From positions 192-64,191 of the forward strand of contig CACWWC010000005.1 in NCBI GenBank assembly GCA_902764545.1: a DNA stretch of 64,000 nt, in the 5' to 3' direction. The notes beneath the pieces were generated by a model, which saw nothing but the letters and a program-made list of their open reading frames with translations, made no database searches and was not told the DNA's origin. The translations under genes and the position numbers were made by a program. Positions 2,087 through 28,491 of this stretch are shown in pieces (position 1 is the stretch's first letter; every line of letters starts with the position of its first letter). This DNA is from an uncultured Erysipelotrichaceae bacterium (GTDB taxonomy: Bacteria; Bacillota_I; Bacilli_A; RF39; UBA660).

Positions 2087-3313
2087 TTATTTAACTATAT
2101 AAGGTTTTTCTAATGTTCCTTTTCCACCTTTTAAAAGTATTTTACTATTTAAATATATAACAGGTCTAACTTTTGAATAGGTAGCCGCAACATCAGCTTT
2201 TAAAACTCCATCTCTATCCACCTTAAATACAGTTGAAGTATCCTTAGAATTTGCAGTAATTAACCACCACTCATCATCAATAGCTAGATAATTATAATTC
2301 ATACAAGATTTTGTACCAACATTCTTACAATTAGGATCTAAACTCGCATACATGTAATCAGATAATGTAAGTAAGCTCATTTTTTGATCTCTCAATAAAT
2401 CCTTGCATTCTAGAGAATTATCCTTCGCTTCAGAAGCATCATCTCTTTTTCCAACACATGCATTATGAGAAACAAGTCTTGCTTTATCACCTTTAGACAA
2501 AATATCTTCTCCATCATCCTTAACTGGATTCTTATATATTCTATCTAAATATTCTCTAATTCTACTTAAACTATACGTATTAAGACCAGATTCATAGAAT
2601 CTAGATTCATTATATCTATCATCCCAAGGTTGAGAGTATTCCAATCCATCTGCATGGATTAAAACAACATTATCATCAGATGTAACTTTTACAATTCTCC
2701 ACAAACTATTATCTAACTGAACATAGTTATTAACAAATTCTCCTCGGTAAACATATCCACTACCAGTAGAATACAACCCATCACCAGAAGTTACCACATC
2801 ATTATCATTAAGTATTTGTTTATATAATTCAACAGTAGTATATGAATCTCCACAATTTAAATATGGAGTATACAAATATTCTGAACCAGAACGTTCAACT
2901 TGAACAGAAGCAGCACAACTTGTATCAGAAACATACTCACTTAAATCTTTCATCTTACCTTCCGCAACTAAATTTGAAGAATCAATTTCAACTATATCTC
3001 CATCATCAACAGGTAAATTATCTGGATGATCCTTAAAGTATGACTTTGCAGCTGAAACAAGAACTTCTTCAACCTGATCATAATCATATTTTTTAGTTGT
3101 AAATAAAGACATTATAAACAAGATAAATAAAAGAATTAATGTTGCCCCAATAATAATCGCCATCATTGTTATCATACGTTTTTTTGCAGGACTTGAAGAT
3201 GTAGTACTTTTCTTTGGCTCATCATCTAATTCGATTTCTTCTATTTCTTCCTCAATCTCATCTTCCTTTTTAGGCTTTTTTACTAAATTTTCTTTTGAAT
3301 TCATAACATACAA
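2087..3313 (-). CDS. Membrane-anchored extracellular protein of unknown function; paralogue of 25113..26924
   Basis: Acidic N-terminus and a single TM helix. A conserved module (AAKSYF..D.LP...YLNCG) and a C-terminal beta-rich module (LWRIVKV, EWWLITANS, VRPVIYLNS, GTLEKPYIV) are shared with the 603-aa protein. Confidence 0.7.
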   Translation of the reverse strand: MYVMNSKENLVKKPKKEDEIEEEIEEIELDDEPKKSTTSSSPAKKRMITMMAIIIGATLILLFILFIMSLFTTKKYDYDQVEEVLVSAAKSYFKDHPDNLPVDDGDIVEIDSSNLVAEGKMKDLSEYVSDTSCAASVQVERSGSEYLYTPYLNCGDSYTTVELYKQILNDNDVVTSGDGLYSTGSGYVYRGEFVNNYVQLDNSLWRIVKVTSDDNVVLIHADGLEYSQPWDDRYNESRFYESGLNTYSLSRIREYLDRIYKNPVKDDGEDILSKGDKARLVSHNACVGKRDDASEAKDNSLECKDLLRDQKMSLLTLSDYMYASLDPNCKNVGTKSCMNYNYLAIDDEWWLITANSKDTSTVFKVDRDGVLKADVAATYSKVRPVIYLNSKILLKGGKGTLEKPYIVK

Positions 3314-3322
3314 TCCTTTCTA

Positions 3323-5752
3323 TTAATTATCAAAAAAATCATCAAAGAAATCATCATCATCACTATCATCATCAAGATTTATATCAACCTTATTATTTGA
3401 AGTGACATTATCGTTTGAACCATCCTTATTACTAGATGTACTATTTTTATCAATATCTGAATTAATTGAATTAGTAGTTGGCCCATTAGAAGAAACTTCA
3501 GTTTCTAATTTGCTGGTATTACCTTCTGAAGATTGTTTCTTCTCTTCATTTTGTTTCTTTTCCTCAGCTTCCAACTCAGCAATCTTCGCATCAATCTTCT
3601 TAACTAACTCATCAACATCAAATCCTAAATCATCATCAATATCATCTTTCACATCAGATTTGTTTGAAGACGGAATACCTAGAAATGGATTTGACACTGG
3701 TTTACTTTCAGATGGAGCAAAGGATGAACTTTCCATCTGCTTTTTAAATGTTTCAAAATCAGGTATTTCAGGTAATCCATCAGAACTAGACTTCTTTCGA
3801 TTTAGAAAATCAGGCACTCCACCATTATCTCTATTAGGCAAAGAAGCATTATTTCTATTCGAATTCAAGCCAGCCATAGACATATCAGAACTCATCCCTG
3901 GCACTTGTGAATCCGAATTCATTCTTGGGGAACTCATTCTTGGCATTCCTGGAAAGTTTGGTAATCCTGGCATTCCCGGAAAGTTTGGTAACCCTGGCAT
4001 AGATGACTTATCTTTATCATCAGACGAATTCATCATCTCAAGTAACTTTTTCTTCTTTTGATTTTTTACAAATTCTTTAATATCAAATGTATGTACTTCT
4101 TTCTTTGGTCTATGAGGATATTTTGCAGGAGGATATTTTTTCCCCCAATCAATTTTAAAGAAGGGAGTAAATTTTGTTTTAAATGGCTGTAAACGCAGTC
4201 TTAAAATAATTACTTCAAACTGTTTCATACGTTGCAAATCAGAAACTGTAACTAAAGGTGTAGAAGCAGTTTTATCATCTTTCTTAGACTTTACTTCACC
4301 ACATAATTTAGAAATTTCTTCTAACGCCTTTAGTTCTGTTGTAATAAGATAAATAGTATTACCACAGTTACCACGAATAGTTTCAGCATCCTCTTTACCA
4401 TACACATCATCTAGCTGAGCAAAGTTCTGAATAATCATAGTAAACCTTATTCTTCTAGAACGCGCAGCAGTAATCATTGTAGTAACATCTTTAAGAGGAG
4501 GCATGTTAGCAAACTCATCCAATAAAAAATTAGTTCTTACTGGTAATTGACCGCCATGACGTTGAGCAACACTGATTAACGTCTCATAAATTTGTTTTAA
4601 TAATATAGTAACCAATGAGTGATATGTCTTCTTTTCATCTTGAATTACGATAAAAACTGCAGTTGGTTTTTCTCCTATTGACTCAAGATCAATATCACTA
4701 TGAGACAACATTTCAGATAAATTCTCTCGAGAAGCAAATAATTTAACTTTTTGCTTAAAAACTGACAAAATACTACCTTTTGTTTCTGAAGGTGCCATAA
4801 TAGTACTAGATGCATTAATTGATGCTGCACTACTAGGGTCTTTAGCAGAAAAATACTCTTTTATATAAGTAGAACCACCAAATTTCTCTTCACCAACAGT
4901 TGTAGCAAGAGAAATACTATTAATATTAATTTCTTCAGGCTTAGCATCTTCAAATAATCCCAAAGCAACTCCTGAAAAATAGTCAGCAGATGTTTTTTCC
5001 CAGAAAGGATCCGCATTTTTATTTGAATCATCATACAAAATATTCAAAGCAAGGTCATCTAAAAGCTCTATTGCCTTATCCTGATTTCCAGATTTATACA
5101 TCTGGTAAGGCAATGTCATAGGATTCCAAGCATTACCACGCTGTGGATCACGGAAATTCAAAAGTAATATCTGATATCCTCTTGATCTCAACATATTACT
5201 TGTTTTTTCATAAATTTCACCCTTAGGGTCAGTTATAATCATTGATTCTCTAGCTTTAGCTAAGCTATAAACCATTGGTAAAACTACAGTTTGCGTTTTA
5301 CCTGAACCAGTAGCACCAATAACTAATGTATGATACTCACTATTATCAACCCACATTTCTTTTTCATTTAACAATATTGGCACTCCAGCCTCTTTACAAT
5401 TTTTCTGACTTATTTGAACACAAGATAATTCTTTTTTTACTTCTTTATCTTTTGCCCATCTTGAATATCCTTTATCACTCTTATTAGCAGAAATACCAAA
5501 CCCCTGTTCTCTTTCAATAAACCAAGAATTGACACTCATAAATAAAGCTATAATAGAAAAAATATAAAATACTATAGTAGACTTAATACATTCAGCCGAA
5601 AAAGCTGGGAAAGGATTAATACCACTTAAATGTCCCTCAACCGCAAAAACATGAATGTTAGAAACAACAAGTGCAACAATATATAATAAAAATATAGCAA
5701 ATATTAGAAATATAATTAAATCATCTGTATCTGCTCTAAACTTAAACTTCAT
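3323..5752 (-). CDS. virD4: Type IV coupling protein (VirD4/TraG/TraD family) with a long disordered C-terminal tail
   Basis: Two N-terminal TM helices, Walker A VIGATGSGKTQTVVLP, and the LLDEFANMPPL motif typical of T4CPs. About 235 aa of low-complexity tail ends in DDDSDDDDFFDDFFDN. Confidence 0.9.
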   Translation of the reverse strand: MKFKFRADTDDLIIFLIFAIFLLYIVALVVSNIHVFAVEGHLSGINPFPAFSAECIKSTIVFYIFSIIALFMSVNSWFIEREQGFGISANKSDKGYSRWAKDKEVKKELSCVQISQKNCKEAGVPILLNEKEMWVDNSEYHTLVIGATGSGKTQTVVLPMVYSLAKARESMIITDPKGEIYEKTSNMLRSRGYQILLLNFRDPQRGNAWNPMTLPYQMYKSGNQDKAIELLDDLALNILYDDSNKNADPFWEKTSADYFSGVALGLFEDAKPEEININSISLATTVGEEKFGGSTYIKEYFSAKDPSSAASINASSTIMAPSETKGSILSVFKQKVKLFASRENLSEMLSHSDIDLESIGEKPTAVFIVIQDEKKTYHSLVTILLKQIYETLISVAQRHGGQLPVRTNFLLDEFANMPPLKDVTTMITAARSRRIRFTMIIQNFAQLDDVYGKEDAETIRGNCGNTIYLITTELKALEEISKLCGEVKSKKDDKTASTPLVTVSDLQRMKQFEVIILRLRLQPFKTKFTPFFKIDWGKKYPPAKYPHRPKKEVHTFDIKEFVKNQKKKKLLEMMNSSDDKDKSSMPGLPNFPGMPGLPNFPGMPRMSSPRMNSDSQVPGMSSDMSMAGLNSNRNNASLPNRDNGGVPDFLNRKKSSSDGLPEIPDFETFKKQMESSSFAPSESKPVSNPFLGIPSSNKSDVKDDIDDDLGFDVDELVKKIDAKIAELEAEEKKQNEEKKQSSEGNTSKLETEVSSNGPTTNSINSDIDKNSTSSNKDGSNDNVTSNNKVDINLDDDSDDDDFFDDFFDN
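3942..4000. repeat. 27-bp tandem repeat (2.2 copies) inside the T4CP tail
   Basis: ggcattcctggaaagtttggtaatcct (3942-3968) is repeated at 3969-3995 with 2 substitutions, both silent in the minus-strand coding frame, plus a partial third copy. It encodes the duplicated PGLPNFPGM. Confidence 0.9.
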
Positions 5753-5809
5753 AATAAGACTCCTCTCTCTACCTATTATATCTTAATTTATTAAAACTGT
5801 CACGAGCAA

Positions 5810-6595: not shown

Positions 6596-8932
6596 CTACC
6601 CGACTTTATAGTATGCTAGCGTGGATGTATTTTCCCAATTGTATTGAGACCACATATCAGTAGAATCACTCGCAGGATCCATCATATTAATAGTAGAGCC
6701 GCTTACGCTATCTATTGCAACCCAGTGCTGACCAGTATTACCTTTAACTTCAGCAACAACATATATATTTTTTTGACTAACTAATTCCTTGATTTTATTA
6801 ATTTTTTCATCCTTACTAAGTCCAGAAAGATATACTCGATCTTGAAAAACAAAATCCGGAGCAACATTTGAAGTTGAAGCCCAAATAAAGTTACCACCAC
6901 TACCGAATCCTCCATTTTTATTTAAAAATTCAACAAAAGTACCAGGATTAAAAGGATTGATATTTGTTTTTACACCACTTTTAGCAATTAACATAGAAAC
7001 AGAAGTTACTAAACAACCAATCTGTCGAATATTTTGTCCAGAATTACCCATAGGGACAGAGCCCCATTGCTCATCACCTTGTCTCCATTTAGCATATTCT
7101 CCATTAGATACACAAACACCTGCACTACCACTACAACTTGCCTTTTTTAAATCAGTTGCCCCAGAACTACGTAATCCACCTGAACCATAGGTTTTCATTA
7201 AAATTTGCTTATAATCCAATCCTTGTTTAGCAAGTGAAGCCCAATAATTCTGTTCCTCCATTAAATAACCAGTGTTTATAATATACCCTTGACTATTAAC
7301 TAAAACTTCACCTTGTGTAGCTTCAGCTGCCTTCCTAATATCATGACCTTCAGGAAGAGCAGGCTTATGATACCACGCAGAAGGATCATCACCATCTACA
7401 GTATATCCACCTTCAGAGCCACCCCCCTCATCATGACATCCTTTATCTATATTACAATAAACTTGATCCGCAACACACGAAGAAATCTGTAATACCCATT
7501 GACCATTTTCTTGATCTAATTTCAAACTTCTACTATTTCCCATTGAATCAGGTCTTGAAAGTGCAAAACTTCTTGCCGCAACCATTTGAGTTTTATATTG
7601 TTCAATAGGAGCTCCATCACCAACTTCAGCATAAGCCACTCCCGCAACATACATCTCAAAATCGACAAGCTCATTACTTACAGGAGTACTATAACTACCA
7701 GTACCATATGGAGGAGCACACTGCATTAATCTAACCTTCAAATTAGATACAGAAATATTTCTAACTATATTATTTCCTCCACTAGAAAAACCTTTAATAT
7801 CATATGTACAACTTCCGAGTGAACCACAAGTCCCAGTTCCAGTATCAACCCTTCCTACAAATTCATTATACTGATCAATATAATCAGAAACCTCTTTAAA
7901 CATCTCCTCACGTTCATCATTAGAAGTCTTAGGTAAATAAGAAGGGACTATACTATTAATAAAATTAGTTTTAAAAGTCTCTTCATTATAAACATTATTA
8001 GATAACATAGCATCGGCCCAACTACGTATAGTCCCCTCACTCACATTATCATAATCAATATCAGCACCATTACTTTTTAATACATGATAAATTGAAACTA
8101 ACTTCATAGCATCAACAGACTTTCCTTGTGCCTGATATGACATTTTTACATTATTAATCGTTTCATAAAACTGTTTTTGTTCACTTGATGCTGCATCATA
8201 CTCTAAGTCCCCAGTTTCATCACCTAAAACAGCACTCATACCAAAAGCATCATCAAATTCTCCAAAAACACCACTGACCATTCCAACTGCACCAAATAAT
8301 ATAACAATAACCAAAATAAATGGAAGAAAAAGAATAAGAACAGATACAAGCACATGTTTTGCTAAAAAACTTACAATTCCCTTACCTTTTTTTTCACCAT
8401 CTTCTGTTGATTCATTGTTAGAACGCGAAGAAGGAAGAGAGCTACTCTGCTCTCCTCCAGAAGCATCTTTGGATGCTTTCTTAGCTTTATTAACTTTATC
8501 AGCGGTATTAGAGGCCTTTTGCATTTTATCATAAGTATCACTTGCTTTACTAGCAGCCTCCGTACCACTACTTGCACCAGAACCTCCACTAACTCGATTT
8601 TTTATACGAGCAGCTTCGCCAATTTTATCACTAGTGCCACTTTCACTTAACTTATTAGACATATTTTGGACATTTCGTCCACCAGGAGCCATTTTATTAG
8701 CCCTAGTCATGCCTTTTGCTGCCATTTCAGTACTCTTACCACCAGTTATTTTATCAGCAGCTTTAACTGCTGCACCGGCAGCCATAGCATAAGGATTTTT
8801 TGAAGCAATAGCAACATCAGCAGCATTACGAATATTATTAGCATTATTTTCAGTACTTCGTTCATCTTCTAGTTTTTTTTCATCGTCTACGCTATTAATA
8901 GAATCATTATTCTCTGCCACTGATATCACCAC
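6596..8932 (-). CDS. T4SS-associated multidomain cell-wall hydrolase (SpoIID/LytB-like plus C39-like cysteine peptidase)
   Basis: About 190 aa low-complexity N-terminus and one TM helix. SpoIID-like motifs QMVAARSFAL and SSCVADQVYC. C-terminal papain-like pair IGCLVTSVSM ... GQHWVAIDSVSGSTINMMDP. Its position matches PrgK/Orf14/CwlT-type hydrolases. Confidence 0.7.
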   Translation of the reverse strand: MVISVAENNDSINSVDDEKKLEDERSTENNANNIRNAADVAIASKNPYAMAAGAAVKAADKITGGKSTEMAAKGMTRANKMAPGGRNVQNMSNKLSESGTSDKIGEAARIKNRVSGGSGASSGTEAASKASDTYDKMQKASNTADKVNKAKKASKDASGGEQSSSLPSSRSNNESTEDGEKKGKGIVSFLAKHVLVSVLILFLPFILVIVILFGAVGMVSGVFGEFDDAFGMSAVLGDETGDLEYDAASSEQKQFYETINNVKMSYQAQGKSVDAMKLVSIYHVLKSNGADIDYDNVSEGTIRSWADAMLSNNVYNEETFKTNFINSIVPSYLPKTSNDEREEMFKEVSDYIDQYNEFVGRVDTGTGTCGSLGSCTYDIKGFSSGGNNIVRNISVSNLKVRLMQCAPPYGTGSYSTPVSNELVDFEMYVAGVAYAEVGDGAPIEQYKTQMVAARSFALSRPDSMGNSRSLKLDQENGQWVLQISSCVADQVYCNIDKGCHDEGGGSEGGYTVDGDDPSAWYHKPALPEGHDIRKAAEATQGEVLVNSQGYIINTGYLMEEQNYWASLAKQGLDYKQILMKTYGSGGLRSSGATDLKKASCSGSAGVCVSNGEYAKWRQGDEQWGSVPMGNSGQNIRQIGCLVTSVSMLIAKSGVKTNINPFNPGTFVEFLNKNGGFGSGGNFIWASTSNVAPDFVFQDRVYLSGLSKDEKINKIKELVSQKNIYVVAEVKGNTGQHWVAIDSVSGSTINMMDPASDSTDMWSQYNWENTSTLAYYKVG

Positions 8933-11300: not shown

Positions 11301-11598
11301 TCTTCCAACACCAACCTTTCCATCTATATCTTTGACGAGTAGTCAAAAATTCATATCCTTCTTGAATAATAACTAACATATTATGATAATGAGGAACTGG
11401 CATCACAAGAAAACCAGTTACAATTGCGGGAGATAAACATAAAACCGCAACTAGAGCATTTGATAGTGGAAGAAATGCAATTAAAATAAACGTAACAAGT
11501 ATTCCACCACCAAACAAATATAAATCAAATGGTCTAAACCAACCTAATATTAATTTACCCCTTTTAGTATTGGCTGGTATAAGATAATTATCATACAC
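11272..11598 (-). CDS. VirB3-like / TcpE-PrgI-family small conjugation membrane protein
   Basis: 108 aa with two TM helices and an N-terminal PANTKRGKLILGWF..FDL motif. It sits directly upstream of VirB4, as in Tn916 orf17 and pCW3 tcpE. Confidence 0.65.
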   Translation of the reverse strand: MYDNYLIPANTKRGKLILGWFRPFDLYLFGGGILVTFILIAFLPLSNALVAVLCLSPAIVTGFLVMPVPHYHNMLVIIQEGYEFLTTRQRYRWKGWCWKSGVIKKKKR

Positions 11599-14713: not shown

Positions 14714-14746
14714 TTATAATATTACAATGTAATTTTTGTCAATTAT

Positions 14747-16767: not shown

Positions 16768-16782
16768 AAATGTAAACCTCTA

Positions 16783-16932: not shown

Positions 16933-16967
16933 CTAATAAATCACCTATCCTTTCAAATTATATATTT

Positions 16968-16996: not shown

Positions 16997-17014
16997 CAAA
17001 AATAATAAATTTTA

Positions 17015-18739: not shown

Positions 18740-20209
18740 CTAATCTTCCAATTTTGGAACTTGTTGACTACCAACTACTACAGAATTAATAGAAGGTTGA
18801 ACTGAATTATTTGTCTGAATTACAGGAGTATTTGCAGTAATCTGTTGATTAACAGCATTATTAATCGGAGTCATTTGAATACCAGAAGAAGCAATATTTT
18901 GCTCATTAATAGCTGTAGAATTTAAACTATTCACAGTAGATGAAGCTAACATAACGTTGTTATTATCCATTACAGGAACAGATTCAGCTTGTCCATCAAC
19001 AATGTTATTAGAAATAGCATTACTGCCTGCAGCAGAATTAGAAATGTTCAAATCATTAACATTATTATTAGAAGCATTATTTCCTAAATCAGTACTGACA
19101 TTGTTTGATTCAAAATTATTAAAATCATCCTTTGCTTCATAAATTGGTAACTCATCAGGCAAATCTTTAATTATAGAAGAAACATCAATATTTTGATTTT
19201 CAATATACTCAACTAAATGACTACTAGGTTTACACATCATCATCTGACCCATTTGTTTCTGATAAATAATTCTGGATTGTGGCTCATTATTATCATCAAC
19301 GTAAAATTCACACACCTCATCTACTTCACGATGAAACTTACCATATTCCTTACTATAAAAAGCTTTAATATGAACACCAATCTGTATATATCTATATATT
19401 GTTGATAAGAATTGATGAACATCCAAATCCGTCTCCATCAATGAATATAAACGATAAGGAATTGCAGAAGCCTTATCAGCATGTATTGTTGATAAAATGT
19501 TATGACCAGAAGATATTGAATTACGCACTGCAGAAACAGCTTCTGCAGAACGTACCTCAGAAAGCAAAATCCATTTAGGATTCTGTCTCATACATGTTAC
19601 TAGAACATCAGAATATGATGCAACATTATTAGTTTTCATAGCAACAATATCCCTTTGGGGATAAATCTTATCCAAATGTAGTTCAAGAGTATCCTCTATA
19701 GTAATAATTTTTTCATTTACCTTAGTATGACTAGCTAAGTATTTAACAAACTCTGTTTTACCTGAACCAGTTTCTCCAGCAACCATTATATTACAATGAC
19801 CTTCAACACATTTAATTAAAAAATCATGAATAGCAGGAGTAAAATAATCTTCTTTTATTAATTTTTCTTTTTCTAAACGAATCTTAGCAGGAGTTTTACG
19901 TATAACTAAAGCAATTCCATTTGTAGCAATAGATTGATGAACAAAGTTCATACGTAATTCAGCAGACTCAGCATCCAAAAAAGGTTTAGCATTATTAAAC
20001 GTAGTTCCCATTACATTAGAACATTGAAAAGCAAGCTTCTCCACAAATTCTGGAGTAGCACCTTCAACTTCCACTCTCATAGACCCTTGAGTTAATGAAC
20101 GAATCCATATTTGACCATTATTATCATACGAAATATCAGTAATATCATCATTATCAAGTAAAGCCCTAAATGGACCAAAATCTAATTTATCAAAAATATT
20201 TTCATTCAT
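18740..20209 (-). CDS. tadA: TadA/CpaF secretion ATPase (GspE/VirB11 superfamily) with an Asn/Ser/Gln-rich C-terminal tail
   Basis: Walker A VAGETGSGKTEFVKYL, Asp box ITIEDTLEL, Walker B WILLSEVR, His box GHNILSTIHA. The last roughly 130 aa are low complexity. Confidence 0.9.
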   Translation of the reverse strand: MNENIFDKLDFGPFRALLDNDDITDISYDNNGQIWIRSLTQGSMRVEVEGATPEFVEKLAFQCSNVMGTTFNNAKPFLDAESAELRMNFVHQSIATNGIALVIRKTPAKIRLEKEKLIKEDYFTPAIHDFLIKCVEGHCNIMVAGETGSGKTEFVKYLASHTKVNEKIITIEDTLELHLDKIYPQRDIVAMKTNNVASYSDVLVTCMRQNPKWILLSEVRSAEAVSAVRNSISSGHNILSTIHADKASAIPYRLYSLMETDLDVHQFLSTIYRYIQIGVHIKAFYSKEYGKFHREVDEVCEFYVDDNNEPQSRIIYQKQMGQMMMCKPSSHLVEYIENQNIDVSSIIKDLPDELPIYEAKDDFNNFESNNVSTDLGNNASNNNVNDLNISNSAAGSNAISNNIVDGQAESVPVMDNNNVMLASSTVNSLNSTAINEQNIASSGIQMTPINNAVNQQITANTPVIQTNNSVQPSINSVVVGSQQVPKLED

Positions 20210-20233: not shown

Positions 20234-21052
20234 TTAATTAGTCCAAACAGTATTTGTATTAATCCAGTTTACTAAATCTTCACTACTAACCTCTAAATCG
20301 GCAGGTTCATCCTTTAAACTCTCATTAGTAGGTACTAATATTAAAGTAGTATCAAAAGATCTCATAAATTCAGCCTTTTTAAGTAAAATATAGTATTCTT
20401 CTGGAACAGCAAATACAACCATAGCAGGAGACTTTCCCTCATCAATATTTTGAAAAACTGGTGAACCATCACTTGCTTTTACAGCAAGCACTTCAATATT
20501 AGAAAGCAATTTTCCAAGCATAATTCTATCAGCACCACTTGCACCTTGAGCAATTTGATCATCAGTTAATTTATTAACTGCCTTCAAATAAATATCAATA
20601 TAATTTCCAGGATAAACTGAATTACCATATGTACTTTCAGTTGTAACTGATAAATTATATAAAACATAACCTTTAGGATATTGTAATATTATATTGGCAG
20701 GAAGTTGTTCTTTTTCAACAACCGCTCTCTTATAAAATAAACTACCTTCTGGAATTACTACATCAGCAGCTGAATATTTATCAATAATTTCACCCATATT
20801 AGTAATTACATCACCTTCAAGCATTGAAGGAGGGACTTGTCTAGTTGATATCATATTTTCTGTAATCTGAGTCCCAGCAGGAATTTGTTGTGCAGCATAC
20901 GGAACAGTAATAGGATTAATTGAACTTTTAATACGCATAGTATAAGCAATATACAAAATAACAATAGCTAAAATTACACCAACAACGGTAACAGTATTTT
21001 TATTTTGCATAAACTTTTTAAATCCAATAGCCAAATTACCCATTTTTATCAC
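20234..21052 (-). CDS. cpaB: CpaB/RcpC-like Flp pilus assembly protein (SAF domain)
   Basis: N-terminal TM anchor followed by the pattern PYAAQQIPAGTQITENMIS..QVP characteristic of SAF/CpaB N-domains. It lies directly upstream of tadA. Confidence 0.6.
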   Translation of the reverse strand: MIKMGNLAIGFKKFMQNKNTVTVVGVILAIVILYIAYTMRIKSSINPITVPYAAQQIPAGTQITENMISTRQVPPSMLEGDVITNMGEIIDKYSAADVVIPEGSLFYKRAVVEKEQLPANIILQYPKGYVLYNLSVTTESTYGNSVYPGNYIDIYLKAVNKLTDDQIAQGASGADRIMLGKLLSNIEVLAVKASDGSPVFQNIDEGKSPAMVVFAVPEEYYILLKKAEFMRSFDTTLILVPTNESLKDEPADLEVSSEDLVNWINTNTVWTN

Positions 21053-21069: not shown

Positions 21070-21561
21070 TTAATTTACATCAAGTAAGCTCTTACACATA
21101 TCAGAGTCAGTATTAATACCAACTTCAGTACTAATATCACTCATATAATTAGATTCTAATATAGCATCGTAACTTGTAGATATATTAGCAGCTTCATTAT
21201 TTCTTTTACCATTTTCAACAGCATTAAAACTCAATGTAGTTAAGGAATCAACTTTAATACTTACCTTTGGAGGCACTTCATTAATATCATAAAAACTTAC
21301 CTTATACCCTCTAGAAGCATCTACACTACTTGCAAATCGATAAAGAAAGCTTTCAACAAACTTTTCTTTATCAATTCTATATAATCCACAAGTTCTATAA
21401 TAAGATAAATCAATCGCATCTTCCATAGAAGCATTTGCAGTCTCTTTTACTAAATAATAATCCATTTCACTACCAGTAGAATAATTTGTTAATACTTGAA
21501 GTAATAATAGAGCAATTAATGCTAGAAATATAATACCTACTGTCAAAACACTCTTATTCAT
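21070..21561 (-). CDS. Membrane-anchored small protein of unknown function (minor pilin or assembly candidate)
   Basis: 163 aa with an N-terminal hydrophobic helix and 2 Cys. Its start codon overlaps the stop codon of the 909-aa gene by 1 nt, sharing nucleotide 21561. Confidence 0.5.
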   Translation of the reverse strand: MNKSVLTVGIIFLALIALLLLQVLTNYSTGSEMDYYLVKETANASMEDAIDLSYYRTCGLYRIDKEKFVESFLYRFASSVDASRGYKVSFYDINEVPPKVSIKVDSLTTLSFNAVENGKRNNEAANISTSYDAILESNYMSDISTEVGINTDSDMCKSLLDVN

Positions 21562-24290
21562 TATTTAACCTCCCCAACAATATTCTCGCAAGCACTACTA
21601 GAATAGTTTTTCATATTATTACATTTTAAGGCATTAGATGATTTCTCAGGTACCTTTTTATCTTTAATATTATCTCTAATCTTTTGACTATAATATCTTC
21701 CTACACCATTTGAATCAATATAGAAATCACTATTCTTAAAGTTAGTATAATTTGAACCACTATTTTCAACTTCATTTCTCATTTTTCTAAGTTCGTCTCT
21801 CGTTATATTAAATTGATAATCCAAATATTCATCAGAGTAAACTGAATTACCCTTTTCTTGAATAATCTTTACTAATTCACTTGGCGTACTTAAATAATTT
21901 TTATTATTTAAACCATTATTAGTATCAGCAAATGATGACCAGTTAAATCCAGGCTCTCTACTACCTTCACCTTCTTGAGCAGGGAATAAATTGTTTAAAT
22001 CAACTGATCTAACTCTATAATTTGAACTGTTAGAAACACAGCTATTTGTTTCGCTAGTAGTTGTACTCTTCATAGAATGAGCATTCAATGCATAGAAACA
22101 ATTAACAGTAATATCCCATCCAAAATAACCAAACTTAGTTGTTTTCGCTCTAATATTCCAATCAATATCAGATTCAGAAACTTTATCAGTATACATAGTT
22201 TTACAATTAGTTATTCTACCATCATCAGATGAAGACAATCCAGGTATTTTACCAGTAATTTTATAATAATAATAGTTCCACCAATTGGTATTTACATCCT
22301 CAGCATCCAAAGGTACACAGAATTTATGAGATTGTTTAGTCCAAGCGGTATTAGATGAAGAAATTGGTTTAAATGAAATTTCTCCGGTTTTAAGATTTAT
22401 CCAAGTACCAGGGAATGACCATGTTGCACGATATCTATCAGTTTTCTTAGTATTTTTATCATAACATCCGGCAAAACCGTTAGCAGGTAAAACATCACAA
22501 GTAGTATCAGTTGCACATTTTCCATCTTTATCCATAGTACATGAAGTACAACTTTCTCCTGTCTTGGCATCTTTGCAGTCAAATCCATCTTCTAAGAATG
22601 TAGTATTTTCATTATCTTTAGTATCACTTGCCCATCCTTTACTAGTACTCTTAATAGTATCAACATTTTTGTCAGCTTCAGTACTATATGGGAACTTAAC
22701 TGTTTTAACAACAGTTTTACCTGATTTATCAGAAGTTGAATAATCAGCTTCAATCGTGAATTCAGCAGTAGACTCTGAACAAGAAGCCATTGCTTGACAT
22801 TGTGTAACAGCACTTTCATAAATCTTTTTATTAATTTCATAATCAGAATCATAATTGTATTTATTTAAATAAGTATCAGAGCCACATCCTCTCCAAGAAC
22901 AAGAATCAGAACAATTAGGAGCTTTATAAATACCATTTTGACTATAAACATGATATTCAGAAGTAAGACCCCAACTATTATCATAATACCATTTACCAGG
23001 AGCATATGAAGAACTGTATTGTAGTCTACCATATCGATCAGCAATTGCAATATTCTTAGCTAGACCATACCAATACACACTACCATTTCGTCTATAATAG
23101 CATCCATAACAATTATTACCCTTACAATTTTTATTATTATTTGCACAATTATTTAAAGCAGTTTCACTAGCTGAATTACTTAAATTCATAGCAAAAGTAT
23201 CATTAGAACTTCCACTATTTTTTCCATAAACCTTCTTATAACATTTGTTTGAACAGCTTTTAGAATATTTACCTCCATCACAAGATTGAATACAAGCATC
23301 AAACTCATCATTAGGGCCACCTTGATTTCCAGACCAACTTCCAGAATAACAATATGGATATGGAGTACATACTTTATAAGATTTAGGTTTTTCAACATCA
23401 GATTCAGAACTACATGTAACACGTGATACAACCTTAACCTTATACTCAAAACACATTCCAGCTTTTGAAGCAACTGGAGGTCCATATTTAACTTCAACAG
23501 CTTCTTCACAAACTCTCTTACAAGTTACAGCTTCCTTAACTTCTGTATCTGGTGACAAATGGTAAACATAATTACCTACATTAATTGTAGAAGTTTTACT
23601 TCCATACAAATAACCAACATTTTCATCTTTATAATAACAATCTCCTTTTAAATTGTCAGAAGAATATGCCTTCGTATAGTCACATTTAAAACTTGCAGAA
23701 GTCGACTTAGAAACATCAACCTTCTTCGTTTTATTTGAATTTTTAATTCTACAAAAAGCAGAAGCAAAAGTATCACCACTTTTAATATTATTACAATCAA
23801 TTGCATCAGTTTTAATAACAGAAGCAGTATAAATATGTTCATCAACAGCATCATAACTAGCCCTTCTATTAACACCTTCAACAGTAATACTTAACTCTGA
23901 ATTAGAACAATTTTTATCTGAGGAATTTATTTGATAATCGTTTTCAATAGTAAAAAATAAATCAACAGAGTCTCCAGTTACATTATATTTTGATAAATCT
24001 ACATCTTTAGCCTCACTCCTAGTTACAACAACACTTGGAGAAACTTCAGCATTACCAACTTTATATAAGTTAAACTTAACATTTTTGTACTTAGCATCCA
24101 GCTTACTAGCATCAATTTTAACCAATTTCTCTTGAACATCAAAATCAAGACTACCATATTTTTTAGCAAGATTTTCACTAGAGCATGCATCACTATTAGT
24201 CTCAGCATAAACACTTTTTAAAGAAAAGAATGATAATATCAACAATAAGACTGAAAACCCCAAAATATTCTTATGCACTTTTCGATTCAT
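21561..24290 (-). CDS. Large secreted cysteine-rich protein (adhesin or pilus-tip candidate)
   Basis: Signal peptide with VYA/ET cleavage context. I count 37 Cys in 909 aa, in clustered CxxxC / CxxC-like groups. There is no LPXTG-type sorting signal and no C-terminal TM helix. Confidence 0.6.
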   Translation of the reverse strand: MNRKVHKNILGFSVLLLILSFFSLKSVYAETNSDACSSENLAKKYGSLDFDVQEKLVKIDASKLDAKYKNVKFNLYKVGNAEVSPSVVVTRSEAKDVDLSKYNVTGDSVDLFFTIENDYQINSSDKNCSNSELSITVEGVNRRASYDAVDEHIYTASVIKTDAIDCNNIKSGDTFASAFCRIKNSNKTKKVDVSKSTSASFKCDYTKAYSSDNLKGDCYYKDENVGYLYGSKTSTINVGNYVYHLSPDTEVKEAVTCKRVCEEAVEVKYGPPVASKAGMCFEYKVKVVSRVTCSSESDVEKPKSYKVCTPYPYCYSGSWSGNQGGPNDEFDACIQSCDGGKYSKSCSNKCYKKVYGKNSGSSNDTFAMNLSNSASETALNNCANNNKNCKGNNCYGCYYRRNGSVYWYGLAKNIAIADRYGRLQYSSSYAPGKWYYDNSWGLTSEYHVYSQNGIYKAPNCSDSCSWRGCGSDTYLNKYNYDSDYEINKKIYESAVTQCQAMASCSESTAEFTIEADYSTSDKSGKTVVKTVKFPYSTEADKNVDTIKSTSKGWASDTKDNENTTFLEDGFDCKDAKTGESCTSCTMDKDGKCATDTTCDVLPANGFAGCYDKNTKKTDRYRATWSFPGTWINLKTGEISFKPISSSNTAWTKQSHKFCVPLDAEDVNTNWWNYYYYKITGKIPGLSSSDDGRITNCKTMYTDKVSESDIDWNIRAKTTKFGYFGWDITVNCFYALNAHSMKSTTTSETNSCVSNSSNYRVRSVDLNNLFPAQEGEGSREPGFNWSSFADTNNGLNNKNYLSTPSELVKIIQEKGNSVYSDEYLDYQFNITRDELRKMRNEVENSGSNYTNFKNSDFYIDSNGVGRYYSQKIRDNIKDKKVPEKSSNALKCNNMKNYSSSACENIVGEVK

Positions 24291-25101
24291 TTAAATCATC
24301 ACCTTTCAATGTTTCTTCCACTTTCTCATATTTCTTATTTCTTTTGACTGAATAATTAGATATTTTGTTTTCTTCATTAACAAGCTTACCAGCAATGTAG
24401 AAATCATCAGTCTTGCTTCCACCAAACCTTGTACAAGTTGCTAAAGTAATAAAATTATCATCATCACTAACATTAAGATTATAATCATAAATTGAATTAT
24501 TCATCATAGTCTCTAAATATTCTTTTTTCTCATTATCATTATACTCATTTATAGGAAGAGTATTGTAACTATAACCATCAATAAAACCAGCAGCAAATAT
24601 TTGATATAAGTAATCTTTATTTTCCATGGTTAATTGAATATATTTATTCTCTCTAGCAAAATCATAATATACAAACGCCATCAATTCTTCAAATCTATTA
24701 AAACTTGAATCACTTTTATCGGGATGACTACTTAAATTCATTAAATTATGTCCTTGTATATTTACAACATTATGATATTTATTATCACCAGGCATTATCC
24801 AAGCATACTTTTCAATATCAGCCGGCATTTCAACACCGGACTTTTTTAATCCTACCAGAGGATAATCTATATTAGTTCCCTGAACCCTAATCCAACCATA
24901 TATACCATAATCATCTGTTTCTTTTGATTTCATCTTATTAATATTAGAAATACGAGATTCAACTTCATAATATTTTTCAAAAGTAAACATTTTCTTAAAT
25001 AATAAAAACAACAACAATATTACTAAAATACATAATAATATAATTAAAATAATATTATAGCTTTTTAATCTTGGACTAATTTTCTTTCTTCTACCACTCA
25101 T
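24271..25101 (-). CDS. Sortase B-like transpeptidase homologue
   Basis: N-terminal TM anchor, GWIRVQGTNIDYPLV (class B sortase signature), a His in IQGHNLMN, and a TLATC catalytic-Cys motif. The usual downstream Arg is not obvious. It overlaps the 909-aa gene by 20 nt. Confidence 0.55.
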   Translation of the reverse strand: MSGRRKKISPRLKSYNIILIILLCILVILLLFLLFKKMFTFEKYYEVESRISNINKMKSKETDDYGIYGWIRVQGTNIDYPLVGLKKSGVEMPADIEKYAWIMPGDNKYHNVVNIQGHNLMNLSSHPDKSDSSFNRFEELMAFVYYDFARENKYIQLTMENKDYLYQIFAAGFIDGYSYNTLPINEYNDNEKKEYLETMMNNSIYDYNLNVSDDDNFITLATCTRFGGSKTDDFYIAGKLVNEENKISNYSVKRNKKYEKVEETLKGDDLNESKSA

Positions 25102-25112
25102 AAATACTCCTT

Positions 25113-26924
25113 TTATTTCAATCTATATGGATCACTAATCGTTCCACTACCACTACTTATAACAACACTATTTTTTACATATCCAACCACTCTTACGCCA
25201 AAATAATCATAATCACCTACATCACGATTAAGCGGAACTCCAACATCTTGAAGAGCTTCCTCCCTACGTGCACCTTTAACAGAATTAATTAACCAATATG
25301 AATATGATAAAGCACCAGAATTTTCAGTAGGAAATGCGCTAAACATTTCATAAATATTTGGAGCACTAAACTTAACATTATATGTTTTAGTCTTTTTTTC
25401 TTCTCCATAAACAATTCTTTTATTATAAATTGGGACCTTTATATCATGATTAACAAATATCGATGTATCAATATTATTGCTTATTTTATTGTTTATATAA
25501 TATGCAACATTATCCTTTTGTTTTGGATTATATATTAACTCACTTGCTCCAGGCATTGAAGTAACAGATAATCGCTCGCCATTACTATCAAAAATCGTAC
25601 TTGAACTTATTACTTTTGTAGTACCATCCTCTAAAGTATCAATAATTCTCCATAAATTACCTTTATTTTCAATATATTCACCTGTAAATCTTGTATTAAG
25701 TAACGAACTCCCTTTAGCCTTCTTCGTATCACCAAAAGTATAGGGATTAATATATGACCCATCTCCATCTTGAATATATGAATCACCTTTAATAACAAAC
25801 ATAGGTCGAACACCATAGTTATCTAGATAGCTATAAGAGAGATATCTTTTTCCATATTGATCACCAAAGAAATAAATTCTAGTTAAATAAGCATCTTTGT
25901 CATCTTTTTTATTAGCTACCCAAGACATTGTACTTGGTCTCATAAAATTCTCATCATTTCCCTCAGCTTTATTAACATCAATAATAGATGGAATATAAGT
26001 ATATCTTTTATCTGTATAGCTATTGCATTGAGTTGTGTCAAGGTTAGCCTCATCAATAGTCATGTTACAAAATTTAGATTTAACAATAATTTTTTTCGTG
26101 TAATCATTTAAATGTTCATAATAATAATCCTCCAACCATTTTTCTATTTTTGAATGATTAACATTCGCAACGTCTTCATTCGATACTAAAATAACATTAT
26201 CATCATTATTAATACCATATATCCTATATAACATATTTGAAAGCCTAACATAATTATTGTCAGGATTTCCCACATAATTGGTAGCCTCTCCCAATTCTTT
26301 CTTAACAACACTTTTAACAGTTTTAACAACCTTAACAGTTCTCGTAGCTACCCCTTTATTTGATAGATTATCAAATGCAGAATAAGTGACAGTATAAACA
26401 CCTATTTTATTAGTATTAACATTACTCTTTATACTTACCAAATCATTTTTTATCTTTCCATCATTACTATCAATAACACTATTAACACCTAATTCTTTAT
26501 ATTTATCGCCAATACTTACAGTAACCTCTTCATCACCATTTAGTTTAATAACCGGTCCATCATGATCGACAGATGATTTTAATATCCCACAATCCAAATA
26601 TGTATAATAAACATACTTACCATTTTCTTTTCTTATCTTTACCCAGCTTTTCTCAATAGAACAAACTTTTTTAGAAAGAGGAATATAAAAGTCAGTGTCC
26701 AAATAAGCCTCCTTATAAAGAGCACTTAAAGAAAGAGTCTTAACTCTTTCTCCTGTAGGCAATTTATCACTATTTAATTCAAAATACCTTTTAGCAGCAT
26801 TTTCTATTTTCTTTTCATTGCTGTGAAAAGTAAGCATAGGTGATAAAACTAAGAACCATACAAACATAGAAACAATCACAATAGAAACTACAAGCTTTAA
26901 AATTTTTACAATCCCTTTTTGCAT
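25113..26924 (-). CDS. Membrane-anchored surface protein with an Ig-like domain and two beta-rich repeats; paralogue of 2087..3313
   Basis: TM anchor and the shared AAKRYF..D.LP...YLDCG module. An Ig-like segment (GPVIKLNGDEEVTVSIGDKY...GVYTVTYSAFDNLSN..RTVKVV). Two LWRI/LYRI..VRP-type modules. The C-terminus is GSGTISDPYRLK. Confidence 0.7.
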   Translation of the reverse strand: MQKGIVKILKLVVSIVIVSMFVWFLVLSPMLTFHSNEKKIENAAKRYFELNSDKLPTGERVKTLSLSALYKEAYLDTDFYIPLSKKVCSIEKSWVKIRKENGKYVYYTYLDCGILKSSVDHDGPVIKLNGDEEVTVSIGDKYKELGVNSVIDSNDGKIKNDLVSIKSNVNTNKIGVYTVTYSAFDNLSNKGVATRTVKVVKTVKSVVKKELGEATNYVGNPDNNYVRLSNMLYRIYGINNDDNVILVSNEDVANVNHSKIEKWLEDYYYEHLNDYTKKIIVKSKFCNMTIDEANLDTTQCNSYTDKRYTYIPSIIDVNKAEGNDENFMRPSTMSWVANKKDDKDAYLTRIYFFGDQYGKRYLSYSYLDNYGVRPMFVIKGDSYIQDGDGSYINPYTFGDTKKAKGSSLLNTRFTGEYIENKGNLWRIIDTLEDGTTKVISSSTIFDSNGERLSVTSMPGASELIYNPKQKDNVAYYINNKISNNIDTSIFVNHDIKVPIYNKRIVYGEEKKTKTYNVKFSAPNIYEMFSAFPTENSGALSYSYWLINSVKGARREEALQDVGVPLNRDVGDYDYFGVRVVGYVKNSVVISSGSGTISDPYRLK

Positions 26925-26934
26925 AACAATCCTC

Positions 26935-28491
26935 CTATGATATAGAATAAATATAATTATTATTCCTTACTATAAAATGCAATTTAATATTCTCACCCAA
27001 TGAAACATCCTCAGGAACAATAATATAAACGACTTTTCCAAAATAATTTTTTTTCATAACAGATAACTCATCAATTACCTGCATCCTACCACTACTATCC
27101 TTATATTCAATTTTACCATACTTAGATAAAAAGTCAATCATGTTTTTAGCTTCCCAGCTATCAGACGCAAACTCCAAAGAAAAGATTAAACTACCTTCAC
27201 CAGCCTGATAAAAATTACTTTTTAATTCACAACTAACACTGCCACAATCATTAGAATTATACTCAATAGATTTTGTAAACTGGTAAGAATCAAAGCTTAT
27301 ACTCTCCTTCTTATTATTCAAATTCAAATCAATATAATCTCCCAAATTATAACTGGCAGAATTCTTTATTTTACTTAAATCTGTAATTTTAAGTTTAATC
27401 TTACGAAGTTTATTTAAATTATTCTTTTCCTGATAAAACAAAACAAACCTATTAGAATTAATCTTTTTATCCACCTTATATATAATGATAAAATTTAAGT
27501 TTTCTCCTGATTTAATAGACTTAACCTTACTATATGATTTACCTAAATCAGAAAATTCTGAAGAATAAGTGGTTTCAGTAGTAATATAATCGTAGTTAGC
27601 TGCTTTAATATGTAAATTGCTTGTATCAAACTTTCTAGATGTATCAGCTAAATTTTCAACACTCAAATTTAAAATAAGAAAATTACTTTTATTAGAAATT
27701 ACTTTACCATTATAATCCTTATCCGTAATATAAGTATCCTGAACTTTTATTACAAAACCATTATAATTATAAAGTTCCCCCTCCTTATAAACCTTATTTA
27801 TTACAAAGAAAGTATTATATAAGTTATATCCAAGTATTAGAATAATTATTACAAAAAGTAATCTAGTCATACCTTTATGTTCTAAATAAAAATATCTAAT
27901 ATTTCTGATTGCTCTGCGCCAAACACGCTTAAAAGTATTTATATCAATATCAAAATTTATTTCAATTTCTTCTCTGTCTTCATCACTTAACTCTAAAAAC
28001 TCTTTATCAGAATTAAAATTAAATTTACCAATATCTAATGCAAAAGTTCTCATAAAAAATATTGCTATTGCAGGAAGTTGCAATACAACAAATATTACAA
28101 GTAAATCTCTAGAAAAACGTAAATCAGTTGTTTCAACATCAATAGTATAAGTTTTAAAAAAACTCTTTATCATATTTAAAATTAAAAATAAAGATACATA
28201 TACTATCAGCGGAATCAAATAAGTCTTCCAAGGCTTATTTTTATATTTTAGAAGAATAACTAAGACAAAACTACCAAAACTAAGTAAAACAACTGAAATT
28301 AGCATAAATAAACTAATATGATTTGAAATTGGGTCAGCATAAAGATCATATGCACCTAATTTCATAAAATCGTTGACAAAAAGATTAACATCTATAATTT
28401 TGTATGCAACAAAAAGACTTAATAAAAGTAAAACAATATGAATTTTTTTAAAATTTTTAATTAAAAATGCAAATGGTTTTCTAATAATCAT
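26935..28491 (-). CDS. Polytopic membrane protein with an extracellular beta-sandwich-like C-terminal half; first gene of the array
   Basis: About 6 TM helices in the first 230 aa, then a beta-rich region (DUF4352-like pattern NFLILNLSVENLAD..KFD). An AGGGAGAG RBS lies upstream. Confidence 0.6.
   Translation of the reverse strand: MIIRKPFAFLIKNFKKIHIVLLLLSLFVAYKIIDVNLFVNDFMKLGAYDLYADPISNHISLFMLISVVLLSFGSFVLVILLKYKNKPWKTYLIPLIVYVSLFLILNMIKSFFKTYTIDVETTDLRFSRDLLVIFVVLQLPAIAIFFMRTFALDIGKFNFNSDKEFLELSDEDREEIEINFDIDINTFKRVWRRAIRNIRYFYLEHKGMTRLLFVIIILILGYNLYNTFFVINKVYKEGELYNYNGFVIKVQDTYITDKDYNGKVISNKSNFLILNLSVENLADTSRKFDTSNLHIKAANYDYITTETTYSSEFSDLGKSYSKVKSIKSGENLNFIIIYKVDKKINSNRFVLFYQEKNNLNKLRKIKLKITDLSKIKNSASYNLGDYIDLNLNNKKESISFDSYQFTKSIEYNSNDCGSVSCELKSNFYQAGEGSLIFSLEFASDSWEAKNMIDFLSKYGKIEYKDSSGRMQVIDELSVMKKNYFGKVVYIIVPEDVSLGENIKLHFIVRNNNYIYSIS

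Follow-up and report, generated by a model that had tools for sequence, protein, structure and literature searches.

The stretch of DNA considered here is 64,000 nucleotides (nt) long, comes from contig CACWWC010000005.1 of an uncultured Erysipelotrichaceae bacterium placed in the order RF39, and is called the window throughout. Its G+C content is ~27%, and nearly all of its genes lie on the minus strand. In it, a Gram-positive-type type IV secretion system (T4SS) and a module resembling those for Tad/Flp pili are physically coupled, as a preliminary description of the same sequence had proposed. The open reading frame (ORF) listing gives 23 co-directional minus-strand genes, from 28491 down to 2087, numbered g01 (26935-28491) to g23 (2087-3313); the preliminary description had recognised the co-directional array but counted 24 genes. 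The junctions that it gave are those of the listing, with overlaps at 24271-24290, 21561, 17818, 11272-11300 and 10737-10740 and with 6595/6596 abutting. The G+C content of this block (0.28-0.34) is slightly above that of most of the window. Two units can be told apart, the first (g01-g13) made up of surface proteins and a Tad-like type IV filament module, and the second (g14-g23) of the T4SS and a surface protein, with a conserved promoter of its own (Table 1).

The second unit contains several parts of a pLS20-type T4SS, namely VirB4, a VirD4-type coupling protein, and VirB6-like, VirB3-like and wall-hydrolase proteins. Across the block, the predictions of VirD4, the two-ORF VirB4, VirB6, the SpoIID-type hydrolase, the CpaF/VirB11-class ATPase and CpaB are well supported by profile matches, and those of two VirB2-like pilins, a VirB3-like protein and two TadB/TadC-like platform proteins are supported by remote homology. 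Most of the earlier gene calls stand on these grounds; for the protein that had been called TadZ-like, the profiles gave a weak AAA_31 hint only. The predicted coupling protein, g22, exceeds the cut-off of the CD1115 family (1e-91, 308 bits against a cut-off of 250) and is 28% identical to the VirD4 of plasmid pLS20 (1e-57). Its C-terminal third has PGMPGLPNFPGMP repeats and an acidic D/F-rich end. The TraC-like family PF26593 is recorded for g18 on identical contigs, and the window g19 itself matches AAA_10 and P-loop_TraG. When g17 was compared with a DUF5592 protein of an Enterococcus faecium plasmid by hhalign, the probability was 68 (P=5e-05, 87 columns), and the gene holds the position that DUF5592 has in pLS20. 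Pfam T4SS_pilin matches 17 of 25 orthologues of g14 and g15 over nearly their full length (best 4e-06); it does so in four of five g14 sequences, the window g14 not being among them, and in four of five g15 sequences, the window copy included. There is also a weak match of g15 to a membrane protein family of Mycoplasma integrative and conjugative elements (ICEs). The start of g14 is likely at 14692 rather than at 14713, and identical contigs call a gene of 109 amino acids (aa) there. For g21 no family match was significant; hhalign against pLS20 gene 53 gave a weak match confined to the membrane anchor, and no VirB8 signal.

Table 1. Predicted genes and other features of the g01-g23 array, in the direction of transcription (positions in the window; aa, amino acids)
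Feature	Position	Strand	Basis or remark
Hairpin after serpin gene, upstream boundary of array	28569..28596	-	11-bp A/T-rich stem, read directly
g01, polytopic membrane protein, 518 aa	26935..28491	-	Five hydrophobic segments (hydropathy)
g02, membrane-anchored surface protein	25113..26924	-	Bact_surface_Ig-like 1e-15, DUF6273 1.5e-05
g03, sortase-like, TLATC motif	24271..25101	-	Sortase 2e-04 and class B sortase 3e-12, both under cut-off
g04, secreted, 909 aa, 37 cysteines, candidate adhesin	21561..24290	-	Cysteine count, N-terminal hydrophobic segment
g05, DUF5411 protein, N-terminal membrane anchor	21070..21561	-	DUF5411 1.7e-45
g06, CpaB/RcpC-like	20234..21052	-	SAF 7e-07, RcpC 2e-06, TIGR03177 5e-09
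g07, CpaF/VirB11-class secretion ATPase, low-complexity C-terminal tail	18740..20209	-	T2SSE 9e-27
g08, TadB-like platform protein, divergent T2SSF	17818..18720	-	Remote homology
g09, TadC-like platform protein, g08 paralogue	17015..17818	-	Profile against g08 P=4e-05; same four-segment topology
g10, pilin-like, 49 aa	16783..16932	-	MKAATG/ELNLTV (slash, end of leader), then hydrophobic helix
g11, minor-pilin-like, 141 aa	16342..16767	-	Leader MKDAFG/G
g12, minor-pilin-like, g11 paralogue, 150 aa	15871..16323	-	Leader MRDSLG/S
g13, cytoplasmic, 368 aa, at junction; 'TadZ-like' label unconfirmed	14747..15853	-	No family match
Consensus sigma-70-type promoter, TTGACA-18-TATAAT	14713..14742	-	In 33-nt g13/g14 gap; followed by GAAGGAG and ATG at 14692
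g14, VirB2-like T4SS pilin, two-helix hairpin	14363..14692	-	Pfam T4SS_pilin in orthologues
g15, second VirB2-like T4SS pilin, signal peptide	13812..14282	-	T4SS_pilin 0.02 for window copy
g16, extended VirB6/TrbL-like channel protein	11620..13797	-	TrbL_4 1.1e-07, over cut-off; six hydrophobic segments
g17, VirB3-like small membrane protein	11272..11598	-	hhalign against E. faecium plasmid DUF5592 protein
g18, N-terminal part of split VirB4, 187 aa	10737..11300	-	Mycoplasma ICE VirB4 model, positions 92-277, 2e-16
g19, VirB4 ATPase domain, 596 aa	8950..10740	-	Same Mycoplasma ICE VirB4 model, positions 295-891, 3e-108, 363 bits
g20, cell-wall hydrolase, VirB1/PrgK role	6596..8932	-	SpoIID 1e-09, SpoIID/LytB 4.5e-10; one membrane anchor
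g21, membrane-anchored, 261 aa	5810..6595	-	Occupies place typical of VirB8-like proteins; one anchor
g22, VirD4 coupling protein, long low-complexity C-terminal tail	3323..5752	-	T4SS-DNA_transf 4e-57, TraG-D_C 8e-25
g23, membrane-anchored DUF6273 surface protein, last gene of array	2087..3313	-	DUF6273 3e-05; kept in 65 of 80 loci
Hairpin and T9, likely array terminator	2051..2080	-	7-bp stem, read directly

The Tad-like module opens with g06, which exceeds the SAF cut-off, reaches 28.0 bits against a cut-off of 28.8 for RcpC and aligns with Ralstonia CpaB over 148 columns (hhalign, P=2e-04), as the CpaB of a Tad system would. The hexameric ATPase of such a system is represented by g07, in which the Walker A, Asp, Walker B and His boxes do not differ among the 60 orthologues compared. 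Its subfamily is ambiguous between VirB11 and TadA, as it scores about equally on the VirB11, 'TadA family conjugal transfer-associated', FlaI and TrbB models; it is 35% identical to the pLS20 protein labelled 'tadA/VirB11' (1e-45). A long N/S-rich low-complexity tail takes up the C-terminal third of g07, and the ATPase ranges from 421 to 601 aa among species.

The two genes that follow are more divergent. Neither g08 nor g09 had a direct match in Pfam, NCBIfam or PDB sequence searches, both fall outside Pfam T2SSF, and a profile of the g08 family gave noise only against PDB sequences. Among 1.8 billion cluster representatives, 222 relatives of g08 were found. A distant one, P0360, matches both g08 (3e-08) and Ralstonia TadB (1.8e-05, local search), and it is probably the one sequence among 24 in an alignment of distant g08 relatives to match Pfam T2SSF (2.3e-05); T2SSF was found in none of ten long distant relatives. 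The g08 profile aligns with Ralstonia TadB itself in register with the T2SSF domain (P=2-5e-04). An AlphaFold2 model of g08 built from a diverse alignment of distant relatives reached a predicted local distance difference test (pLDDT) score of 86. The sole notable PDB match of this model was the cytoplasmic domain of EpsF (2vmb_B; probability 0.87, template modelling (TM) score 0.66 on the target, root-mean-square deviation 3.4 Å), with an E-value of 3, which is not significant. A model from a shallow alignment (87-93% identity) had a pLDDT of 52 and was discarded as unusable. Plasmid proteins of the same gene neighbourhood are closer, g08 matching pLS20 gene 38 (profile probability 97.7, P=2e-12) and a 271-aa E. 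faecium plasmid protein (P=2e-08), and g09 matching pLS20 gene 39 (P=1e-03). Taken as sequence and model comparisons, the evidence leans towards g08 and g09 being half-size TadB/TadC platform proteins.

Next in order, g10, g11 and g12 all have a leader of six residues, the last of them Gly, and then a hydrophobic helix. The N-terminus of g10 is near-invariant across 68 species. The family consensus sequences of g11 and g12 are nearly identical, and in g11 the leader and helix are kept while the globular part is variable (non-synonymous substitutions per site, dN, 0.44-0.57). The pilin-like character that had been given to g10 holds for its leader and hydrophobic helix and fails for the Flp motif G/XXXXEY, since g10 has Glu at +1 and no EY at +5/+6. 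No hhalign signal was obtained for g10 against Ralstonia Flp or for g11 and g12 against TadE, and a TadV/A24 prepilin peptidase was found neither in the 64-kb window nor, by matching to Ralstonia TadV, in 1.9 Mb of RF39 loci. The last gene of the unit, g13, had no match in Pfam, NCBIfam or PDB, and a PDB profile search came back empty; AAA_31 matches weakly in 2 of 35 orthologues (0.018), and the hhalign comparison with Ralstonia CpaE is not significant (P=0.1).

Ahead of this module stand g01 to g05. The DUF5411 protein g05 is the counterpart of pLS20 gene 36 (hhalign P=7e-04, 75 columns). The cysteine-rich g04 has no Pfam match, and the protein at its position in contig L101 carries PXO2_28_C. 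No Pfam match was found for the window copy of g01; its orthologues on other RF39 contigs match DUF4352 weakly. None of the 23 array proteins has an LPXTG-type sorting signal. Conservation of this part has been seen for g02 in contigs L096-L098 and for the whole of g01-g05 in three further contigs.

The junction between the two units carries a consensus promoter that is the sole 12/12 match within the 15.5 kb scanned. Nearly all of 67 species retain its TTGACA box, which directly follows the g13 stop codon. Because of this conserved promoter, the T4SS half has its own start; since no terminator follows g13, read-through from the upstream half is possible as well. In two species (L054 and L067) a 3.2-kb insertion lies exactly at the g13/g14 junction. 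The L054 insertion (2752-6005) would encode two proteins, of which one (498 aa) is a polytopic membrane protein and the other (513 aa) has a GxGxxG motif near its N-terminus and apparently binds FAD/NAD. With a conserved promoter and ribosome-binding site at the junction, and an insertion there in two species, the earlier view that the pilus module is hard-wired into a T4SS operon has become doubtful.

The block is a widespread feature of its lineage. The host is an uncultured gut or rumen member of RF39 with a small genome, and the host records of relatives are of uncultured gut and rumen Bacilli and 'Tenericutes'. Many metagenome contigs carry exact copies of the window proteins with the same neighbours. 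In the protein collection, relatives of the g19 VirB4 number more than 7000, the best 120 of them at least 89% identical and bearing names that include 'Mycoplasma sp. CAG:877' and 'Bacilli bacterium'. Among contigs representing one genome per species, at least 559 stretches encode a VirB4 relative; the best 80 (83-96% identity) belong to genomes from the gut of humans, rodents, rabbits, chickens and ruminants, and one VirB4 stretch lies on a complete circular chromosome of 1.52 Mb. The carriers include Candidatus Faecimonas, which corresponds to the GTDB genus CAG-877 of order RF39 and has a genome of 1.4 Mb with 28% G+C (PMC8035907). RF39 as a whole has been described as highly reduced and auxotrophic (PMC12306168).

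Synteny and identity were compared across the 80 best species-level loci, gene order being judged where the sequence sufficed. In every such locus g06-g23 are followed in the same order by genes for a rhodanese, a VTT protein and RmuC, and the same downstream neighbours are found in ~50 species. The two halves thus occur together, as the preliminary description had supposed, and its suggestion of a fixed chromosomal locus, as opposed to an ICE, agrees with the same flanks across species and extends to the whole order. Median identities are 87% for VirB4, 80% for the ATPase, 76% for g08, 72% for g09, 75% for g10 and 71% for VirD4, and 80% for RmuC. Over five comparisons, dN was 0.05-0.07 for VirB4 and 0.12-0.17 for RmuC; that of g08 and g09 was 0.07-0.11 in four of the five and 0.17-0.18 in the most divergent. 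VirB4 and, in those four comparisons, g08 and g09 change more slowly than the neighbouring RmuC. The exposed parts, g11, g16, g20 and g23, change faster. Walker A shows no variation among the compared orthologues of the Tad-like ATPase and VirB4, and for VirD4 it is identical in 64 of 74. From the order-wide synteny and the constraint it follows that a functional chromosomal system has been inherited vertically, not an ICE. Conserved synteny ends soon after rmuC. In one contig of the same species (L003), a gene with HTH_38 (IS30-like) lies just past rmuC, at 16054-17244, and the sequence farther on differs among samples.

Genes of a mobile element were sought in the array and its nearest flanks (94-32099) by Pfam scans of the window proteins, and in the remaining window through the precomputed Pfam families of contigs carrying identical copies of those proteins. 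No relaxase, integrase or replication family was found in the 64-kb window, in agreement with what had been reported from the letters alone. At distances of up to 10 kb from the gene matched (VirB4; g08 for L096-L098), the loci examined contain neither a relaxase nor an integrase, and no MobL-type relaxase was matched in 1.9 Mb of RF39 loci, no search for an origin of transfer (oriT) having been made; the linked relaxase of a pLS20-type T4SS is therefore missing here. Likewise, no recombinase adjoins the block, whose flanks are the same across species, as an ICE would not have them; att repeats were not searched for.

All the same, the machinery is of plasmid ancestry. Megablast of the whole block against plasmids gave no match, and the relationship appears at the protein level. 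The best plasmid matches of g07 are to pLS20-family Bacillus plasmids and then to those of Peribacillus, Enterococcus, Lactococcus and the B. cereus group (1e-25 to 1e-38), compared with 1e-14 for Ralstonia CpaF and 1e-09 to 1e-13 for the VirB11 and TrbB proteins listed. The split VirB4 matches that of pLS20 (3e-38), which is likewise split, into 192 aa and 633 aa. Plasmids pLS20 and E. faecium p144_1_66kb have a common layout, in which an adhesin, a small membrane protein, the ATPase, two ~250-270-aa proteins and small membrane proteins precede (a VirB2-like protein), a CD1115 VirD4, a p028-type VirB6, DUF5592, a ~200-aa protein and VirB4; in pLS20 a MobL relaxase comes after VirB4. Lactococcus pUCCL629A has the ATPase module near its T4SS and MobL relaxase, again with two ~250-270-aa proteins and small membrane proteins in the neighbourhood of VirD4, VirB6, DUF5592 and VirB4. 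The context of P0360 shows the same order of a PXO2_28_C protein, DUF5411, SAF, T2SSE and two platform proteins. A Mycoplasmatota plasmid carries a closer VirB4 (30% identity, 2e-79) paired with a canonical Tad locus, the pilins of which have the G/XXXXEY motif. This plasmid, CP074574.1 (L099), is from a cold seep and is typed as non-mobilisable; the VirB4 of the same lineage adjoins the Tad locus at ~7800-29800, which comprises a SAF protein, a 613-aa AAA ATPase, CpaF, two platform proteins, four Flp/TadE-type proteins and a 1650-aa protein.

A VirB11-class ATPase has been published for both the pLS20 and the pAW63 family (PMC8557374; PMC9673590). In pLS20, gene 37 is a putative VirB11, genes 36 and 38-41 have been left as unknown, and no pilus components are considered to be encoded (PMC8557374); nor, as published, does the family encode a VirB2 homologue (PMC8557374). 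It may be noted that pLS20 gene 45 (L001, 14035-14265) encodes a 76-aa two-helix hairpin protein, and that a protein annotated as TrbC/VirB2 stands at the matching place in the E. faecium plasmid (L095, 18797-19072). Given this literature and the plasmid modules, the premise of the preliminary description that monoderm systems do without a VirB11-class ATPase was too strong. Because the pLS20, Enterococcus and Lactococcus plasmids carry the same module beside a T4SS, the composite is a family trait of a known plasmid class; the architecture of the RF39 block is not unique, having been inherited from that class. The plasmid and P0360 contexts further mean that a T4SS joined to a Tad-type module recurs within this part of Bacillota.

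Both boundary hairpins that had been reported for the array can be read in the sequence. A terminator scanner reported neither, because they are too A/T-rich for its G+C criterion. Directly upstream of the array lies a 562-aa serpin (28605-30293); in RF39 contig L098 a 157-aa gene, and no serpin, precedes g01, and the serpin is therefore a variable neighbour. Beyond it the upstream flank is housekeeping for 20 kb, with ireB, ruvX, mltG, a methyltransferase, a CHAP protein, two U32 peptidases, a dGTPase and greA besides the serpin. The downstream flank has the rhodanese, the VTT/DedA protein and rmuC. Farther off, two plus-strand genes interrupt the otherwise minus-strand window, one for an SLT lytic transglycosylase (52530-53657) and one for a zeta-toxin-family protein (54803-55939); small minus-strand ORFs lie between them, and the GC skew changes locally (52530-55939). 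For an 808-aa protein (41150-43576) there is no exact-sequence record.

The block looks like a plasmid mating machine that has been taken over for a cellular job. In our judgement it derives from a Gram-positive conjugation machine of the pLS20/pXO2 kind, has become fixed in the chromosome and is inherited vertically, and it probably serves the cell and exports a substrate on contact. That it would serve the cell and not a mobile element is argued from its one chromosomal place across the order and from the strong constraint. On this reading, the ATPase and the platform pair would assemble a short filament or pseudopilus through the cell wall, which, with the surface proteins g02, g04 and g23, would make or stabilise contact with another cell. 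The g20 hydrolase would open the peptidoglycan locally, VirD4 would recruit a cytoplasmic substrate, and VirB4 with VirB6, VirB3 and VirB2 would move it out or into the contacted cell. Candidate substrates are chromosomal or mobilisable DNA, or proteins. Contact-dependent export of DNA or protein is thus the function that we infer, export being favoured over uptake because VirD4 is conserved. The exchange of DNA is plausible because the nearest VirB4 family is that of Mycoplasma ICEs, which move chromosomal DNA (PMC12857230), and protein delivery is plausible too.

Several points weigh against this reading. The platform assignment is one of remote homology, for which the Foldseek E-value is not significant and the direct TadB profile gives P of about 1e-04. 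The pilin-like proteins have no Flp motif and the window no prepilin peptidase, so that the filament is a predicted one, and g13 and g21 are without a supported assignment. With the internal promoter and the junction insertions in two species, each half could act on its own. Elsewhere in the genome, beyond the window searched, there may be a relaxase, an oriT or mobilisable elements. As dS is saturated, dN/dS values are rough, and the host organism is uncultured.

Tad pili of other bacteria serve adhesion, and the Tad-like module could in the same way form an adhesive pilus for gut colonisation, with the T4SS as an independent neighbour doing an unrelated job. The consensus promoter at which the T4SS half starts and the 3.2-kb insertion between g13 and g14 agree with such a separation. 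We nevertheless regard it as unlikely, as order and adjacency are kept in all sufficient loci of the 80, the pairing recurs on unrelated replicons (pLS20 and E. faecium, Lactococcus and Mycoplasmatota plasmids), and on plasmids the module lies inside the conjugation operon (PMC8557374). Another view, in which no type IV filament exists, would make g07 a VirB11-type energiser and g08 and g09 two T4SS-specific adaptors that help to assemble the VirB2-like pilins or the channel. It draws on the equal scores of g07 on VirB11, TrbB and TadA models and its VirB11-like core length, on the pLS20 literature, which names the ATPase VirB11 (PMC8557374), and on small proteins without an Flp motif and with no prepilin peptidase in view. 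CpaB, two T2SSF/TadB-linked platform paralogues and three leaders ending in Gly, however, amount to the parts list of a Tad system and not to the partner set of a VirB11, and on the Mycoplasmatota plasmid a VirB4 of the same lineage accompanies a Tad locus that is unmistakable; we consider this view quite unlikely.

A machine for DNA uptake (competence), comparable with Helicobacter ComB or with Tad-dependent transformation in Micrococcus, was among the roles first suggested. Several bacteria bind and take in DNA through type IV filaments, Tad filaments among them (PMC8467076; PMC8513845), and an auxotrophic lineage with a small genome might profit from importing DNA. However, VirD4 scores over its family cut-off at a median identity of 71%, ComB-type uptake systems are without VirD4 (PMC12857230), and no comEC or comEA-like gene was found in the window. 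With so well conserved a VirD4 present, uptake is the least favoured of those roles, and very unlikely. A further alternative, a segment of an ordinary ICE or plasmid with its relaxase, integrase and att sites just outside the window, is in keeping with the slightly raised G+C content of the block and with the occurrence of all close relatives of its parts on conjugative plasmids. It has already been largely refuted and is now highly improbable: ~50 species share the downstream neighbours, including an RmuC that is ~80% identical, the 20 kb upstream are housekeeping genes, the block also lies inside a complete 1.5-Mb chromosome, and in the loci examined neither a relaxase nor an integrase lies closer than 10 kb to the gene matched.

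The block is a core, slowly evolving feature of RF39, a prevalent uncultured gut lineage with small genomes. Knowing its substrate and partner cells may be central to understanding and cultivating these organisms. Reviews up to 2025 describe Gram-positive T4SSs as universally without VirB11-class ATPases and, Patescibacteria aside, without pilins. Against these reviews, the RF39 locus and its plasmid relatives carry a VirB11-class ATPase, predicted pilins and the parts list of a Tad system. The module is therefore a candidate for the missing surface structure of Gram-positive conjugation, and for the means by which Gram-positive systems cross a thick wall and find partners, which could be tested in the genetically tractable pLS20. 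A bolder proposal, which we hold to be doubtful, is that RF39, like Patescibacteria, independently took over a conjugation machine and a type IV filament, which together would form a core organelle of a life in obligate contact with other cells. If true, RF39 cells might attach to other gut microbes and exchange DNA, proteins or nutrients with them, and this would help to explain why the abundant, small-genome RF39 bacteria have not been grown alone. As a corollary, the 'VirB11' region of pLS20-type plasmids would encode an unrecognised Tad-like filament for Gram-positive mating.

No paper linking RF39 with a T4SS or a Tad system was found among open-access papers and bioRxiv preprints, and the block is best set beside systems described elsewhere. 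It shares with the pLS20 family a CD1115 VirD4, an extended VirB6, a DUF5592-type VirB3-like protein, a VirB4 split in the same way and a wall hydrolase, as well as, in a row, a 'VirB11/TadA' ATPase, two ~250-270-aa membrane proteins and small membrane proteins. Members of that family are plasmid-borne and self-transmissible, with a MobL relaxase, an oriT and regulators, whereas the RF39 block is chromosomal with no relaxase nearby. The two differ further in that VirD4 is near the end of the T4SS genes in RF39 and at their start in pLS20, and in the clear CpaB of the RF39 block. The T4SS of Mycoplasma ICEs (CDS5, CDS16 and CDS17; the Mbov_0397 VirB4 family) provides the best-scoring VirB4 model and comes from Mollicutes-related hosts, and its machinery moves chromosomal DNA besides the ICE (PMC12857230). 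At 363 bits against a cut-off of 590, however, the RF39 VirB4 is not a member of that family, and it is split, unlike the one fused polypeptide of Mycoplasma; these ICEs are mobile, and no wall hydrolase (VirB1-like), VirB8-like component or Tad module is listed for them (PMC12857230).

With Tad/Flp (type IVc) systems the block has in common CpaB, a CpaF/TadA-class ATPase, two predicted half-size platform paralogues, and a tiny pilin-like and two larger minor-pilin-like proteins, in the usual order; it differs in having no G/XXXXEY motif, no TadV in view and an ATPase that is no closer to CpaF than to VirB11. The TANB77 pilus locus was considered as a counterpart and rejected, because it is another kind of Tad locus, in which the platform protein is fused and a T4SS is lacking. 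The R64 thin pilus and PAPI-1 are known examples in which mating is aided by, or depends on, a type IV filament working alongside a conjugation-type T4SS (PMC12857230). Those are diderm, mobile systems with type IVb pili and relaxases, whereas the RF39 block is monoderm, Tad-like and chromosomal.

Conceptually, the RF39 block comes nearest to the relaxase-less T4SS on the chromosome of Patescibacteria. In Southlakia epibionticum and its relatives, too, a monoderm-type T4SS is encoded on the chromosome of a small-genome, uncultured-type lineage, is widely conserved, usually has no relaxase, has VirB2-like pilins of the T4SS_pilin family and co-exists with a type IV filament (PMC12102498; PMC12857230). 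The RF39 block shares defining features of that kind of system, being chromosomal, lineage-wide, without a relaxase nearby and with VirB2-like pilins (definition of PMC12102498). Patescibacteria belong to another phylum, and their type IV pilus genes are treated apart from the T4SS cluster, in contrast with the adjacent Tad-kind module of RF39. Their T4SS is essential for epibiotic growth (PMC12102498; PMC12857230). With the RF39 block, Patescibacteria would no longer be the sole case of a cell keeping a conjugation machine for itself; the block would be a second domesticated T4SS in a small-genome uncultured lineage.

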